A stretch of DNA of 64,000 bases, taken from NCBI GenBank assembly GCA_963718525.1, contig OY970355.1, forward strand, positions 1,280,001 to 1,344,000, in the 5' to 3' direction. The notes under the pieces were generated by a model. That model worked only from the letters and a program-made list of their open reading frames with translations. It searched no databases and was not told the DNA's origin. Shown piece by piece: positions 19,161 to 55,845 of this stretch. Origin of the DNA: Candidatus Dormiibacterota bacterium. GTDB taxonomy: Bacteria; Chloroflexota; Dormibacteria; Aeolococcales; Aeolococcaceae. Positions within the stretch are counted from its first letter, which is position 1. Every line of letters begins with the position of its first letter. Position numbers and translations under genes: made by a program.

Positions 19161-20540
19161 ATGCCGTCGCCACGCTTCGCGGTCCGGTCCTTGCTCGCGC
19201 CTCCGACGGATGGTGCTGGGGGGCGCATCGCGATCGCCGGCATCGCCGGAATCCTGCTCACCGCGCCGCTTTCAATGCAGCAGGCTGTCGCGCCGTATCC
19301 GGTGCTCAGCTGGCTGCTCACCGGCTGCGGGGCTGTGCTTGCGGTCGCCAGCCTCCGCGCGTCGTGGTCGCCCCGCGCAGCCGTGACGCGTGGCGCGCTC
19401 GGCCTCCTGGTCGTCTTCTGCGCGGTATCCGGGGTGCTCGGCATCTCGCAGACGGTATCGAGCCTCCGGCAATCAGACCAGCAACTGGTCTGCCGCGACG
19501 ACGTGGCTCCAGACACGGTCGTCGGCGGACAGGAGGTGCTCAGCGGCGCTGACCCGTACACGTCGTTCAACCTGCTCACCGCGGAGCGCGCTCTCGGGTG
19601 TCCGAGCTACTCGGTAACCCCCCTGCATTCCGGCATCTTCGCCTCCTTCACCTCGCTCCCGACGGCAGCGCAGATCGACCGCGCCGCGGAGGCGACCCTG
19701 CAGGGAAGCAGCACCGGCGGTTTGCTCGTCGGCTTCAACTACCCGGCCGGGACGGCACTGCTCGGTGTCCTGGGTCCGCATGCGCTGGTGTTCATCTCGC
19801 CTCTGGTGCTGCTGCTCGCGGGGCTTGTCGTCGTGCGGCGGGCGCCGCCGCCCATGCGCCGTCCAATGATTCTCGCGCTCGGCGCGCAGGCGGGCTTGCT
19901 CGGCATCATCGGCGCAGCGCAAGCCGACGCCGTGGTAGCAGCGCTTCTCGTGATCGCGATCAGCAGCCGGCTCGGATGGGCGATGGGCATTGCACTGGGT
20001 GTGGCGTGCGCAATCAAGCAGACCGCGTGGTTCGTTGCCCCCGCGCTCCTCATCCTGGCATTGCGCGGGGGCAGGACTCGCGATCTCAGGTATCCGGCAG
20101 GCGCATTGCTCGGCTTCGCGGCGCTGAACGTTCCGTTCATCGCGGCCGGTCCTTCGGCGTGGATCACCGGCATCCTTCGCCCGCAACTGCAACCGGTGTT
20201 CCCGTTCGGTTTCGGACCCGGTGCGTTCGTACCGGCGGGGAGCAGCGCTGCCCTCGTCTTCTCGGTTCTGATGATCCTGGCCGTCATGGCGGGATGCGTC
20301 TGGTGCGCCGTCGCTCCCCGGCGATGGGCACCCGCGGGGATCATCGTTTCCAGCCTCGGACTGTGGGTCGGTCCGCGCAGCCTCGGCAACTATGTCGCGC
20401 TGCTCGGCGTGATCGCCGTCTGCGCTGTTGCCGGCTCGGCAGTCACACGGTCGGCACCCGTCCGAGCATCGCTTCGAGCAGGGCTGCAGTGGTTTCGTGT
20501 GGTAGCCCCGGCAGGAATCGAACCTGCGCACAAGGTTTAG
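19161..20540 (+). CDS. Polytopic membrane protein, probable GT-C glycosyltransferase
   Basis: GADPY, FNYPAG and AIKQTAW motifs, typical of GT87-like proteins. The last 41 nt overlap tRNA-Arg on the opposite strand. Confidence 0.7.
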   Translation: MPSPRFAVRSLLAPPTDGAGGRIAIAGIAGILLTAPLSMQQAVAPYPVLSWLLTGCGAVLAVASLRASWSPRAAVTRGALGLLVVFCAVSGVLGISQTVSSLRQSDQQLVCRDDVAPDTVVGGQEVLSGADPYTSFNLLTAERALGCPSYSVTPLHSGIFASFTSLPTAAQIDRAAEATLQGSSTGGLLVGFNYPAGTALLGVLGPHALVFISPLVLLLAGLVVVRRAPPPMRRPMILALGAQAGLLGIIGAAQADAVVAALLVIAISSRLGWAMGIALGVACAIKQTAWFVAPALLILALRGGRTRDLRYPAGALLGFAALNVPFIAAGPSAWITGILRPQLQPVFPFGFGPGAFVPAGSSAALVFSVLMILAVMAGCVWCAVAPRRWAPAGIIVSSLGLWVGPRSLGNYVALLGVIAVCAVAGSAVTRSAPVRASLRAGLQWFRVVAPAGIEPAHKV

Positions 20541-20574
20541 GAAACCTCTGCTCTATCCACTGAGCTACGGGGCC
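20500..20574 (-). tRNA. tRNA-Arg (anticodon CCT)
   Basis: Reverse complement GGCCCCGTAGCTCAGTGGATAGAGCAGAGGTTTCCTAAACCTTGTGCGCAGGTTCGATTCCTGCCGGGGCTACCA forms a cloverleaf with loop TT-CCT-AA, a TTCGA T-loop and an encoded CCA. Confidence 0.95.
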
Positions 20575-20756
20575 TCAAGAGGTTTTCCGAACTCAAGGCG
20601 ACTGTGTCCCGCCATTTGTACCACCATCAGACAGCAGTGCTCAGGACGGGTGGACGGGGTGCGGAGACCGGCAGCCGGTCGCGCACGCCATGATTGTGTC
20701 GAGATGTTGCGTCGCCGTCATCGCGCGCCAGCCGGCAGCGCGCAGAGTGGAAGCTC

Positions 20757-21371
20757 GTGAGCGAGATTGAGGTTTCCCCGCCTGACAGCTCCCCAATGGT
20801 TCATTCGACGGCGGATATCGAGCGTGGGGTCACGATCGGGTTGCGCACTCGGATTTGGGCTCGATCACACCTCCGCAGAGGCGCCTCCGTCGGAGATGAT
20901 TGCGTCATTGGCGAGAACGTCCTCATCGATCTCGATGTGCAGATCGGCAGCCGTTGCAAGATTCAGAGCAATGCCCTTCTCTACCACGGCACGGTGCTCG
21001 AGGACGAGGTATTCGTCGGACCGGCCGCATGCTTCACCAATGATCGCTATCCTCGCGCGGCAACCCCGGACGGGCAACTCAAGGACGATTCGGACTGGGT
21101 GGTCTCAGGGGTGATGGTCGAGCGTGGAGCCGCCATTGGCGCGCATGCGGTGGTGGTTGGTGGGGTCCGCCTCGGTGCATGGTCGATGGTCGGCTCCGGG
21201 GCGGTGGTGACACGCAGCGTGCCTGCTCATGCAATCGTCGTGGGCAACCCGGCTCGACGCATCGGATGGGCGTGTCGGTGCGGTCACCCCCTTGACGCAG
21301 CGCTCGTGTGCGCCACCTGTGGTACCCGCCACGCCCTGGTCGGCGACACCGTAACGGTCGTTGTAACTTGA
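20757..21371 (+). CDS. Hexapeptide-repeat (left-handed beta-helix) N-acyltransferase, WbpD-like, with C-terminal Cys-rich ribbon
   Basis: VHSTADIE, VGDDCVIGENV, FVGPAACFTND, VVGNPARRIGWACRCG...CATCG. Confidence 0.85.
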   Translation: MSEIEVSPPDSSPMVHSTADIERGVTIGLRTRIWARSHLRRGASVGDDCVIGENVLIDLDVQIGSRCKIQSNALLYHGTVLEDEVFVGPAACFTNDRYPRAATPDGQLKDDSDWVVSGVMVERGAAIGAHAVVVGGVRLGAWSMVGSGAVVTRSVPAHAIVVGNPARRIGWACRCGHPLDAALVCATCGTRHALVGDTVTVVVT

Positions 21372-21375
21372 CGAG

Positions 21376-21750
21376 GTGACCGCATTGGCCCCTCATGACC
21401 GTTTCGCGCTCAGTTTCGACCTCGAGGCGCGCGACTGGCTGAGCAGGCATCAAAAGGCGTCGCGCCTGTACATCGCATTCATGTCGTCACGAGCGTGCTG
21501 TTCCGGCGCTCAAGTATGTGATGTCCGCGTGCGCGTCGAGGCCACAACGTCGCAACCCGCAATTCGGAGCGCTTCCTGGATCACGCTGGGGTCGGTGCAC
21601 GGATATGAGGTGATGCTGGATTCGCGTCTCGCGGATCGTATGCCCAGCCAGATTCGGTTTACCAAGCGGGGAGTCGGTCCCTTCCAGCGTCTCGATCTCG
21701 ACTTCAGCGGTGAGCAGTGGGCCGACATGCTCTACCCGGTCGCGCGCTGA
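21376..21750 (+). CDS. Hypothetical protein with a vicinal CC motif (HesB/CC-motif-like)
   Basis: 124 aa containing RACCSGAQVC, located 4 nt after the acyltransferase stop. Confidence 0.6.
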   Translation: MTALAPHDRFALSFDLEARDWLSRHQKASRLYIAFMSSRACCSGAQVCDVRVRVEATTSQPAIRSASWITLGSVHGYEVMLDSRLADRMPSQIRFTKRGVGPFQRLDLDFSGEQWADMLYPVAR

Positions 21751-21776
21751 CGCGCGATATCGCGGGAATAAGACCG

Positions 21777-21851
21777 TCGGGAAGGGGAGATTCGAACTCC
21801 CGACCTCACGGTCCCGAACCGTGCACTCTAACCTGGCTGAGCTACTTCCCG
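21777..21851 (-). tRNA. tRNA-Pro (anticodon CGG)
   Basis: Reverse complement CGGGAAGTAGCTCAGCCAGGTTAGAGTGCACGGTTCGGGACCGTGAGGTCGGGAGTTCGAATCTCCCCTTCCCGA with stem CACGG/CCGTG and loop TT-CGG-GA; CCA is not encoded. Confidence 0.95.
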
Positions 21852-34347: not shown

Positions 34348-34782
34348 ATGGCGAGCGCATTCACCGGGATCGACCACGTGGGAATCGCCGTCGCCGACCT
34401 GAATCTCGCGGTCGCCGCCTATGAGCGACTTACCGGTTCGGCGCCCGCGCATCGCCAGGTGGTCACGTCCGACGGCATCGAGGCGGTCATGTTCCAGGTG
34501 GGCGAATCGAGGATCGAGCTGCTCGGGAGCACCGGTCCCGATTCGAAGATCGCCGGATTCCTCGCGCGCCGCGGCGGCGGGCTCCATCACGTCGCCTACG
34601 GCGTCGACGACGTCCAGGCAAGCCTCGACCATTTCGCCGAGCTCGGTCTCCAGCTGCTCGACACGTGTCCGCGCCAGGGTGCGGCCGGCAGGCTGGTGGC
34701 GTTTCTGCACCCGTCGGCCGGAGCCGGGGTGCTCACCGAACTGTGTCAGCCGGACCAGGAGAAGAGCGGGTCGCACGCATGA
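34348..34782 (+). CDS. mce: Methylmalonyl-CoA epimerase
   Basis: IDHVGIAV, RIELL, GLHHVAY, VAFLHP..GVLTEL; adjacent to the mutase. Confidence 0.92.
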   Translation: MASAFTGIDHVGIAVADLNLAVAAYERLTGSAPAHRQVVTSDGIEAVMFQVGESRIELLGSTGPDSKIAGFLARRGGGLHHVAYGVDDVQASLDHFAELGLQLLDTCPRQGAAGRLVAFLHPSAGAGVLTELCQPDQEKSGSHA

Positions 34783-36365
34783 GCGACCACCCCGGCGCGG
34801 AGGCCAGTCGCGCCGATACGGAGTTGGGGATCCCGTTGGAACCCTATTACGCCGACCAGCACGACCCCCCGCCTCCACCCGGCGAGTACCCGTACACGCG
34901 GGGAATCCGCGCCGACGGGTACCGGTCGCGGCTCTGGACCATGCGTCAGTACGCGGGCTTCGGAAGCGCTGAGCAGACCAACGAACGGTTCCACTACCTG
35001 CTGCGTGCCGGCCAGAGCGGGCTCTCCGTGGCGTTCGACCTGCCCACGCAAATGGGCTACGACAGCGATGACCCGGTGGCCCACGGGGAGGTCGGCAAGG
35101 TCGGCGTCGCCATCGACTCCCTCGAGGACATGGAGCTGCTCATGCGTGGGATCCCGCAGGACCGCGTGACCACGTCGATGACAATCAACGCGCCCGCGTC
35201 GGTGCTCCTGCTGCTGTATGAGCTCGCGGCCGAACGCAAGGGCATCGACGCGTCCACGCTCGGAGGGACGATCCAGAACGACATCCTCAAGGAATACGCC
35301 GCGCGGGGCACCTACATCTTTCCGCCGAAGCCGTCGATGCGGCTGGTCACCGATACCTTCGCGTACTGCGCAGAGCGTCTGCCGCGCTGGAACACCATCA
35401 GCATCAGCGGCTACCACATACGCGAGGCCGGGGCGACGGCACCACAGGAGATCGGCTTCACGCTGAGCAACGGCGTCGCATACGTGCAGGCCGCGATCGA
35501 TGCCGGCCTCGATGTCGAGGACTTCGCCCCACGACTGAGCTTCTTCTTCAACGTCAGCAACGATTTCTTCGAAGAGGTCGCCAAGTTCCGCGCCGCTCGC
35601 GCGCTCTGGGCGGAGGTGATGCACGACCGCTTCGGCGCCACCGGAGAGCGCAGCCTGCAGCTGCGATTTCATGCGCAGACGAGCGGTGCGACGCTCACGG
35701 CGCAACAACCGCTGAACAACGTGGTGCGGGTCTCGCTGCAGGCGCTCGCGGCAATCTGTGGTGGCGCGCAATCGCTGCACACCAACAGCTATGACGAGGC
35801 CCTCGCGCTGCCGTCGGAACAGGCGGCGGAGATCGCGCTGCGCACCCAGCAGGTCATCGGCTTCGAGACCGGTGCCGCCAACGTCACCGATCCAATTGGT
35901 GGAGCACACCTCGTCGAGGCGCTGACCCACGAGCTCATGGAGGAATCGCGGACGCTCATGAGCCGTGTCGACGAACTTGGAGGTGCGGTGGCGGCGATCG
36001 ACGCCGGCTTCTACCAGCAGCAGATCCAGGAATCGGCCTACCGGCATCAGCGCCTCGTCGAAGCTGGGGAACGCGTCATCGTCGGCGTCAACCGGTTCAC
36101 CGAGACGTCGCAACCGGCGGTGCCGATCCTCCGTGTCGAGGCCGGCCTGGAGACCGAGCAGATCGCGCGGCTGCAGAAGATGCGCGCCGCCCGCTCCACC
36201 ACGGCAGTCACCCGTGCGCTCGATGCGCTGCACGCCGGTGCCGAGGGTAGCGACAATCTGTTGCCGCTGATGCGAACCGCGCTTGACGCCCACGCGACCG
36301 TCGGCGAGGTGTGCGGCACGCTTCGCGAAGTGTTCGGCGTCTATCGTCCGGCGGTCACGGTGTGA
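34779..36365 (+). CDS. Methylmalonyl-CoA mutase, substrate-binding (large) subunit without B12 domain
   Basis: PGEYPYTRG, WTMRQYAGF (Tyr), NDILKEYAARGTY (Arg), [23 protein letters not shown]. Ends without a DXHXXG domain. Confidence 0.92.
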   Translation: MSDHPGAEASRADTELGIPLEPYYADQHDPPPPPGEYPYTRGIRADGYRSRLWTMRQYAGFGSAEQTNERFHYLLRAGQSGLSVAFDLPTQMGYDSDDPVAHGEVGKVGVAIDSLEDMELLMRGIPQDRVTTSMTINAPASVLLLLYELAAERKGIDASTLGGTIQNDILKEYAARGTYIFPPKPSMRLVTDTFAYCAERLPRWNTISISGYHIREAGATAPQEIGFTLSNGVAYVQAAIDAGLDVEDFAPRLSFFFNVSNDFFEEVAKFRAARALWAEVMHDRFGATGERSLQLRFHAQTSGATLTAQQPLNNVVRVSLQALAAICGGAQSLHTNSYDEALALPSEQAAEIALRTQQVIGFETGAANVTDPIGGAHLVEALTHELMEESRTLMSRVDELGGAVAAIDAGFYQQQIQESAYRHQRLVEAGERVIVGVNRFTETSQPAVPILRVEAGLETEQIARLQKMRAARSTTAVTRALDALHAGAEGSDNLLPLMRTALDAHATVGEVCGTLREVFGVYRPAVTV

Positions 36366-40347: not shown

Positions 40348-41535
40348 ATGAAGCTGCTCGAGTACCAGGCGAAACAGCGCTTTGCTTCAGCCGGCATCGC
40401 GGTCCCGCCGGGCCGGCTGGCGCGAACCCCGGAGGAGGCCGCAGCAGCGGCTCGCGAGCTCGGCCGCGTCGCTGTCAAGGCGCAGGTGCCCATCGGCGGG
40501 AGAGGCAAGGCGGGTGGCATCGCCGTCGTCGACACCCCAGAGGAGGCCCAGCGCGAGGCTGCGCGGATCCTGGCGATGGACATCCGCGGCTACCCGGTGC
40601 GGAGCGTCTGGTGCGAGACCGGTCTCTCCATCGAAGCGGAGCTCTACCTGGGGATCACGCTGGACCGCGATCGCCGCCGCCTGGTGATCATCTTCTCGGC
40701 GGCGGGCGGCATGGAGATCGAGCAGGTCGCCGTCGAGGCTCCTGAGCGCATCGCCAAGCTGTGGCCCGATCCGTTTGCGGGTCCGCAGCCCTTCGAGATC
40801 CGCCGGCTGGCGTTTGCAGGGTTGGCGCATGCGCCGGAGCTGCGCGACCGCGTCCCGAAGTTGGTGAGCACCCTGGTCGGACTCACCACTCGGCTCTACT
40901 CGGTCGCGGTGTCTTTCGATGCGCTGACGTGCGAGATCAACCCGCTGGTGCTCACGCCGGACGGCGCCCTCGTTGCCGCGGACGGAAAGCTCGAGACCGA
41001 TGAGAACGCGGACTACCGGCACGGGGATGTTGCCGAGGAGCTGGCGCGCGATGAGACCGGCGATGACGGCCGCAGCGGCGACGACCCTTTCGAGGTCGAG
41101 GCGCGCAAACGTGGTCTGACCTACGTACACCTCGACGGCGACATCGGCTGCATCGGCAACGGTGCCGGACTCACGATGAACACGCTCGACCTTGTCAAGC
41201 AGCACGGCGGTGAGCCCGCCAACTTCCTCGACATCGGTGGCGGCGCGAACGCGGAACGCGTGCGCAACGCCCTCGAGATGGTGCTCCTCGACCCCAAGGT
41301 GCGCGGCGTGTTCATCAACATCTTCGGGGGGATCACACGTGGTGACGAGGTCGCGCGCGGGATCATCGCGGCGCGCGACCAGCTGCGAATCACCAAGCCA
41401 TTGGTCGTTCGCATGACGGGGACCATGGAAGAAGAGGGTCGGCAGTTACTGGAAGAAGCAGGCATCGTCCCGGCCAAGAGCGCCAGCGAAGCGGCCGAGA
41501 GCATCGTCGCGCTTACCAGGGGGGGCAGCGAATGA
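40348..41535 (+). CDS. sucC: Succinyl-CoA ligase (ADP-forming), beta subunit
   Basis: MKLLEYQAK, VKAQVPIGGRGKAGGI, EINPL, GNGAGL, ANFLDIGGG, NIFGGITRGD. Confidence 0.96.
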   Translation: MKLLEYQAKQRFASAGIAVPPGRLARTPEEAAAAARELGRVAVKAQVPIGGRGKAGGIAVVDTPEEAQREAARILAMDIRGYPVRSVWCETGLSIEAELYLGITLDRDRRRLVIIFSAAGGMEIEQVAVEAPERIAKLWPDPFAGPQPFEIRRLAFAGLAHAPELRDRVPKLVSTLVGLTTRLYSVAVSFDALTCEINPLVLTPDGALVAADGKLETDENADYRHGDVAEELARDETGDDGRSGDDPFEVEARKRGLTYVHLDGDIGCIGNGAGLTMNTLDLVKQHGGEPANFLDIGGGANAERVRNALEMVLLDPKVRGVFINIFGGITRGDEVARGIIAARDQLRITKPLVVRMTGTMEEEGRQLLEEAGIVPAKSASEAAESIVALTRGGSE

Positions 41536-41552
41536 ACTGCGTCTCGCACGGA

Positions 41553-41676
41553 GTGGGGAGGGCATGAACGGAGGAGGGCCGTCTCGCAGCCCGGGCTACC
41601 CCCCCGGGCGAGAGCGAGGGGCGGAACGGCGAAGGCGTTCCGACCCCGTGCCCGCCGTAGTTCATGCCCTCCCCAC
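41553..41676. repeat. Intergenic palindromic element with a perfect 17-bp terminal inverted repeat and two nested hairpins (MIRU/REP/MITE-like)
   Basis: GTGGGGAGGGCATGAAC (41553-41569) pairs with GTTCATGCCCTCCCCAC (41660-41676). Internal stems are GCCCGGG/CCCGGGC and CGGAACG/CGTTCCG. Confidence 0.85.
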
Positions 41677-41694
41677 GCCCACTGAAGCCGTCTC

Positions 41695-42579
41695 ATGAGC
41701 GTCCTTGTCGATCGGTCCAGCCGCGTCGTCATCCAGGGCATCACCGGGCGCGAGGGGAGCTTTCATACGGGGCAGATGCGCGCTTTCGGGACCAACATCG
41801 TCGCGGGGGTATCGCCCGGCAAGGGTGGGAGCGACCAGGATGGGATCCCCATCTTTGACACGGTCGCCGATGCTGCTGCGGCCACTGGCGCGGACGTGTC
41901 GGGGATCTTCGTGCCGCCTGCTTTTGCCGCTGACGCAATCATGGAGTCAGCCGCCGCAGGGATCCGGTTGACGGTGTGCATCACTGAGGGAATCCCCGTG
42001 CTGGACATGATTCGCGCTCGCGAGTTCGTGCTCCGGACAGGCAACCACCTCCTCGGCGCGAACTGCCCGGGAATCGTGACCCCCGAGCAGTGCAAGGTCG
42101 GGATCATCCCCAACCACATCAACACTCCCGGGCCGGTCGGGATCGTCGGGCGCAGCGGCACCCTCACCTACGAGGTGATACAGGGGCTCGGACAGGGAGG
42201 GATGGGCCAGACGACGTCAGTCGGCATCGGCGGAGACCCGGTGATGGGGCTCAGCTTTCCGGATGTGCTCCGTCTCTTCGCCGACGATACGGAGACGCGC
42301 GCCGTGGTGCTCATCGGTGAGATCGGTGGCTCCGACGAGGAGACCGCGGCCGCGTGGATTCGCGACACCGGATTCGACAAGCCGGTGGTGGCGTTCATCT
42401 CCGGTCGAACGGCGCCTCCGGGAAAGCGAATGGGCCACGCGGGCGCGATCATCAGCGGCAACACCGGCAGCGCGCAGAGCAAGATCGACGCGCTCACCGC
42501 TGCTGGCGCGGAGATCGCCGATACGATCGAGGACGTGGTGCGGTTGACGGCGGCGAGGCTGGACGCTCGCTCTCGCTGA
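41695..42579 (+). CDS. sucD: Succinyl-CoA ligase, alpha subunit
   Basis: [48 protein letters not shown] phospho-His. Confidence 0.97.

Positions 42580-53235: not shown

Positions 53236-55840
<2,605 letters not shown>

Positions 55841-55845
<5 letters not shown>

Follow-up and report, generated by a model that had tools for sequence, protein, structure and literature searches.

Mycobacterial MIRUs, the original account of which is said to be that of Supply et al. in 1997, are the closest described counterpart of the repeat analyzed here. According to the available excerpt of PMC12548453, they insert at start codons and carry an ORF coupled at -4, which likely spares downstream expression. Excerpts of two further reports give a length of 40-100 bp with about 40-50 copies per genome (PMC3184786), and units of 77 and 53 bp (PMC4213456). 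By our arithmetic, these two unit lengths equal 3n-4, which is the frame rule of the element that we describe below. It lies in a window of 64 kb (the whole stretch of DNA analyzed) from Candidatus Dormiibacterota. Like a MIRU, as portrayed in the excerpt of PMC12548453, it is short, GC-rich and structured, lies between genes and has an ORF that overlaps its neighbors at -4. It works like a mycobacterial MIRU but is not one, and is set apart by host, size and copy number. All 28 further copies come from Ca. Dormiibacterota and not from Mycobacterium (the exact-pattern scan returned no mycobacterial locus), the element forms a three-way junction of ~125 bp rather than a unit of 40-100 bp, and we counted 1-3 exact copies per genome, a lower bound, instead of 40-50 (MIRU values from the excerpt of PMC3184786). 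Also unlike MIRUs, it is found in both orientations, has an ATG...CAT cassette that can invert, is retained over synonymous distances at saturation, and is relay-less in some copies.

Bacterial MITEs of the Correia, RUP and Nezha types, as far as the excerpt of PMC3184786 covers them, share with the element a length below 200 bp, inverted ends, a stable stem-loop and ORFs fused to host gene ends (here in P0019, P0021 and P0121). An earlier note on the same DNA had proposed a MIRU/MITE-like family. Its interspersed nature is borne out by the 28 further copies, but the anatomy differs from that of MITEs, as conservation is lowest in the terminal repeats and highest in the core; moreover, no independent target-site duplication was found, and no cognate IS was present in the scanned flanks. 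REP, REPIN and BIME sequences, in the excerpts of PMC3733652 and PMC6006769, likewise adjoin the 3' ends of co-directional and convergent genes, supply stop codons and form composite, decayed clusters. Unlike REPs, the element is far longer and low-copy, and by eye there is no terminal GTAG/CGTC foot common to all copies. Unlike REPs with a RAYT (TnpA-REP), it has no flanking Y1 transposase within 10 kb, an unlinked RAYT being possible. No description of the element was found in the open-access literature searched (mostly titles and listings, without supplements). The relay principle is already known; new, as far as this literature goes, are the comparative evidence that the frame is selected, the cassette that can invert and the conservation of the core.

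In the window, the element separates sucC (succinyl-CoA synthetase beta, 40348-41535, plus strand) from sucD (succinyl-CoA synthetase alpha, 41695-42579, plus strand). The relatives of the sucC ORF are named SucC and place the host in Ca. Dormiibacterota; the sucD orthologue in L031 has CoA_binding and Ligase_CoA domains. The arms of the element are a perfect 17-bp inverted repeat, the left one at 41553-41569 (plus strand, holding an ATGA) and the right one at 41660-41676 (minus strand), with a span of 124 bp. ORF1 (11 codons, 41532-41567, plus strand) overlaps the sucC stop with its ATG, and ORF2 (44 codons, 41564-41698, plus strand) overlaps the sucD ATG with its TGA, so that three ATGA overlaps join sucC to sucD. 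All these coordinates, and the translations given in the earlier note, were reproduced. The three-way junction proposed there was also recovered, with a predicted stability of -103.9 kcal/mol (z = -5.5; none of 200 shuffles was as stable). Its outer helix P1 pairs 41552-41579 with 41650-41677, and the conserved 74-nt core (41577-41650) contains the hairpins P2 (41580-41616, with a C-rich loop) and P3 (41618-41647). The variants of the P3 loop (around 41629-41635 in the window) have three bases each, the last of them A (GAA, AAA, AGA, ACA). Loops of this type give DNA hairpins an unusual stability, which would hint at a role as single-stranded DNA. The 102 nt from the arm ATG to the CAT (41564-41665) form a cassette of 34 codons whose relay frame has no stop in either orientation. 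The tail that follows (41677-41694, plus strand) lacks an SD and varies in length and sequence among relatives, with the frame kept. As the earlier note had claimed, sucD has no SD of its own: the 12 nt upstream of it scored +0.4 kcal/mol against a short anti-SD motif, in a simple pairing test that gave values above 0 for 11 of 56 window genes.

One exact scan of a species-genome collection with two 11-nt core motifs returned 46 loci. Of these, 28 are true further copies, from 21 genomes with 1-3 exact-pattern copies each (one in a 3.2-Mb chromosome), and the other 18 are unrelated chance matches. As the pattern is exact over 22 nt of the core, the 28 copies are a lower bound. A second copy in the 64-kb window was not detected by BLAST, pattern, profile or covariance model, and 766,579 bases of fetched DNA contained no further full copy. 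Plasmid and phage collections gave two and one weak partial matches, respectively (E 0.5 and 0.04), which we took as chance.

The element lies just past gene 3' ends, and the copies fall into five sites. The commonest is sucC-sucD (site A), which is touched by 12 of the 28 copies. Site B precedes a DUF503 gene and follows a 97-aa gene that itself comes behind a ParA-like gene. At site C (four loci), the neighbors are ccdA and a cyclopropane-synthase-like gene in convergent orientation; site D is purS-purQ; and site E is a singleton before a transaldolase-family gene. Empty sites were looked for in the fetched flanks, but the neighbor genes of a given site were present there only at loci of that same site. 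This distribution bears on the idea, raised in the earlier note, of a regulatory RNA (or uORF) that tunes the SucC:SucD ratio. The prominence of sucC-sucD among the sites and the SD-less window sucD would suit such a regulator, but the same core is present at four other, unrelated sites in either orientation, and both orientations are found at sucC-sucD itself. A known RNA, which the earlier note had set against its repeat family, did not turn up either: no Rfam family matched at the gathering threshold, and the matches at E<=10 were at chance level only (E 0.59 or worse). We therefore regard a regulator specific for sucCD as extremely unlikely.

Under a strict rule (-4 or -1 overlaps at both ends), the ORF relay was found in 10/10 complete sucC-sucD junctions, including the window, with spacers of 154-262 nt. 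The ORF relay described in the earlier note is thus kept across deeply diverged genomes, but two chained ORFs are not its design. All nine complete relative junctions have one ORF of 53-88 codons, with a -4 overlap on the sucC stop and a -4 or -1 overlap on the sucD start. The window, the tenth case, has two. Its upstream segment measures 32 nt, versus 30, 33 or 39 nt in the relatives, where it is in frame with the arm ATG, so that in the window ORF1 stops at the arm ATGA and ORF2 restarts there. The two-ORF form is a local variant, in which the arm ATGA absorbs a 1-nt shift. A read error is an unlikely cause, since there were no frame switches over 18.9 kb of homologous coding DNA in the window.

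The last codons and the stop of the window sucC fall within a segment (41523-41541, plus strand) that also provides the ORF1 ATG and is 74% complementary to 41640-41674 (pair I1). We infer that this segment derives from an element arm, in decayed form; it is also present at the sucC end in relatives. Such an origin would explain why ORF1 and ORF2 both start with ATGAAC, a likeness to which the earlier note had drawn attention. The start is real, but GTCTCGCA, also common to both window ORFs, is absent from that place in the relatives.

At the other sites, the relay was less regular. Two of three purS-purQ junctions passed the strict rule, and the third (L023) has eight frame switches in its flanks. 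At the DUF503 site none of eight junctions passed, and six of the eight have an ORF that begins at an overlapping start and stops 4-6 nt before an SD-less start, by a relaxed rule that was set after the data had been seen (the arms there have no ATG). The singleton at site E has no relay, and the convergent site C has no overlapping start. Over all co-directional sites, 12 of 22 junctions obeyed the strict rule; four loci were omitted from these counts and from the alignment below (L007 and L040, at contig ends, and L015 and L017, with arms of two sites). L018, L038, L023 and L028 failed both the strict and the relaxed rule. Clearly error-rich flanks were seen in L023 only, and swapping or trimming the core in silico restored the relay in none of the four.

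As a control, we considered element-free spacers of 60-400 nt, which were chained in 3/61 cases, or in 9/61 with lenient starts (heuristic gene calls; eight more spacers were excluded for a plausible direct start). Because the junctions are related by descent, Fisher values for the relay overstate its significance. As to the tetranucleotide direct repeat that MIRUs show when empty and filled sites are compared, ATGA or GTGA flanks the spacer in the filled sites, the only ones seen, and coupling itself demands such flanks. Good SD sequences (-6.1 or stronger) precede purQ and 4 of 9 relative sucD genes, so these genes could perhaps do without the relay. According to the excerpt of PMC6728339, experiments have established termination-reinitiation at -4/-1 overlaps, with an SD dependence that differs from gene to gene.

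Lengths on either side of the core point to selection on the frame. Those from the start to the core (33, 36, 39, 45, 48, 54, 75 and 108) and those from the core to the start (36, 45, 57, 72, 138 and 153) were all 3n, with one exception each. When one ancestral length per site was granted free, 6 of 7 changes on each side were in frame (P ~0.007 each), and random frameshifts in the flanks, made locus by locus, kept the chain in a fraction of 0.14-0.36 of the trials where the cassette was intact. Conservation of the frame as a mechanical by-product, due to duplication units of 3n or to one in-frame ancestor and without selection, is very unlikely in our judgment. The flanks are heterogeneous in sequence and in length (eight and six lengths, all 3n with the exceptions just mentioned), the convergent site lacks an overlapping start, and the controls reached only 3-9/61; in favor of a by-product one can cite the fixed 102 nt of the cassette, the scarcity of stops in GC-rich DNA (two of three reverse core frames are open) and the common ancestry of the junctions.

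It is the frame and not the peptide that is conserved, as the synonymous share of the cassette variants (20/71, 0.28) is no higher than the 0.29 expected without selection. ORF2 matched six predicted proteins, including two CcdA fusions and one fusion with a SucC fragment, and these matches suggested that the interior is conserved. Homologous bridging frames are elsewhere annotated as hypothetical proteins. These annotations, and the reading of the same core frame at three sites, might suggest that the bridging ORF encodes a functional small protein. We find this hardly credible in view of the neutral synonymous share, the lengths of 44 to 88 aa, and the window lineage, which reads the opposite strand and therefore an unrelated peptide. 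There was also no usable Atlas match, which is weak evidence.

The orientation of the core differs within site A. In 10 of the 12 fetched copies it is antisense to that of the window; the window shares the other orientation with L040, and the two are sisters (support 100/100). The ATG...CAT cassette is inverted in the window lineage, with the relay unbroken. The cassette length is constant at 102 nt between arm ATG and CAT, and flipping the cassette in silico kept the relay in 12 of 13 site A and D junctions, a result that is partly automatic, due to the length symmetry and to the frequency of such stop-free frames in GC-rich DNA.

In the clade that carries the element, the tail of SucC is unstable. 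An arm-like or arm-encoded GRA ends 19 of 74 in-clade SucC proteins, versus 0 of 45 outside (P0077 was omitted from the trees and the tail counts). Two SucC proteins are fused to element frames, P0021 terminating in the tail of ORF2 and P0019 in the frame of ORF1, as seen in protein sequences only; fusions of this kind would keep the coupling. LTGDPA in L002 and similar tails might be the displaced native SucC end, but this is no more than a suggestion, as part of the motif is dictated by an SD at that spacing.

In the alignment of 25 copies, 15 of 48 predicted pairs had changes in both partners; 13 of these pairs belong to the outer helix, and 0/500 shuffles scored as high. This covariation of the arms could result from conversion between arms or from selection. 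Arms diverge three times faster than the core (0.15 within and 0.27 between sites, versus 0.05 and 0.08 for the 52 core positions that the scan pattern left free). Among site A genomes, the mean core distance was 0.058, compared with 0.51 at four-fold sites of sucC (28 pairs), which makes the core about nine-fold more conserved than synonymous sites, in a sample for which the scan itself had selected an exact 22 nt of the core. Copies from the same genome have closer cores (0.028 versus 0.077, permutation p = 0.0006; only seven pairs, non-independent and perhaps affected by assembly collapse), and the distribution of core variants disagrees with the sucC tree. Copies within a genome may have exchanged their cores by gene conversion or re-insertion.

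In the main rival explanation, the host has domesticated the core as a functional structured RNA or as a signal in single-stranded DNA, for example an mRNA stabilizer, a processing site, an antisense RNA or a protein-binding site, and the relay ORF merely lets it sit in coupled operons. We consider this unlikely. The nine-fold conservation at 1-3 copies per genome is in line with it, as are the variable paired outer helix around an invariant junction, which is a functional-RNA pattern, and the occupation of the same sites across saturated synonymous distances. Against it, the element stands in both orientations at sucC-sucD, next to unrelated genes and between convergent ones, and promoter and terminator scans found no consensus. 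A strand preference was not clear from the pairing (G-U in 13 pair columns on one strand, A-C in 8), nor was it established by the mean MFE of the two strands (-95.6 versus -92.4). Furthermore, decayed and tandem arm copies flank several loci, which is typical of repeat turnover.

Together, the above observations probably reflect a low-copy, once or still mobile structured repeat that is kept at coupled junctions only with a ribosome relay. A repeat of ~125 bp, with covarying outer arms around a conserved two-hairpin core and so far confined to one Ca. Dormiibacterota clade, would land just past stop codons. Where the downstream gene depends on incoming ribosomes, a copy would persist only if a stop-free ORF leads from the upstream stop to the downstream start. 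Ribosomes would then terminate, re-initiate, unwind a structure of roughly -100 kcal/mol and reach the next gene, with the bridging peptide as a presumed by-product. The same frame rule would also have sorted out later duplications, deletions and the one cassette inversion, and core sequence would pass between the copies of a genome. Recognition by an unlinked mobilizing or host protein would conserve the core. A more far-reaching version is possible but doubtful: a self-renewing, translationally invisible element, with a both-strand-open cassette of 34 codons that inverts between the arms and a core held by an unlinked protein or a host function, might re-insert into or convert older copies at a few coupled junctions, and rewrite SucC-type C-termini with the subunit genes still coupled.

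With respect to mobility, a scan of 117 cluster representatives of the 431 flanking ORFs revealed no transposase beside any copy and no Y1 transposase (0/117). No empty site was seen among the fetched flanks either, which keeps the domesticated signal in place as the main rival. The 1-3 exact-pattern copies per genome, and the one copy in a 3.2-Mb chromosome, indicate that present mobility is weak or absent. Given the convergent site and the relay-less singleton, survival of frame-preserving copies fits as well as targeting, and targeting of coupled junctions is unproven. An rve-domain integrase/transposase (L028:3088-4290) lies 5.8 kb from the singleton copy, with no link to the element seen.

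Some loci are composite. L015 (8330-8567) has the left arm and flank of one site and the right arm and flank of another (C with A-type), and in L017 (9969-10104) the arms and flanks also come from two sites (B with sucC); these hybrids are either assembly joins through the repeat or products of inter-copy recombination that rearranged the chromosome. Tandem units of ~36-39 nt, made of an arm and the core start, were found in L011, L014 and L018 (site B) and in L015. In L015, a partial older copy that ends at the P3 loop directly precedes the full copy, and here the element may have inserted into itself. L036 (site D) and L021 (site C) have ~15 nt in common past each arm, and the arm type of L036 is unlike that of the other two purS-purQ copies, suggesting that the mobile unit may reach beyond the inverted repeat or that two insertions struck a single junction.

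The element extends the MIRU-type frame rule to a second phylum, with comparative evidence that the frame and not the peptide is kept where synonymous sites are saturated. It offers natural alleles for termination-reinitiation across a very stable structure (a single ORF, two ORFs, an inverted cassette, a SucC fusion, and re-initiation 4-6 nt downstream without an SD), and poses the question of what keeps the 74 nt of the core almost unchanged when a genome has 1-3 copies of it. In terms of annotation, element frames account for some of the "hypothetical proteins" of the clade and for its unstable SucC C-termini.

Two further observations concern the rest of the window. At 20500-21851, a tRNA-Arg(CCT) and a tRNA-Pro(CGG) on the minus strand enclose ~1.2 kb without a convincing gene, a possible integration remnant. 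On either side of the pccB-sucCD-acyl-CoA dehydrogenase cluster lie two related genes, at 34779-36365 and 53266-55845 (direct repeats D5, D10 and D12). To judge by its orthologue, the first is a methylmalonyl-CoA mutase; the second encodes a longer, fusion-like protein of 859 aa.
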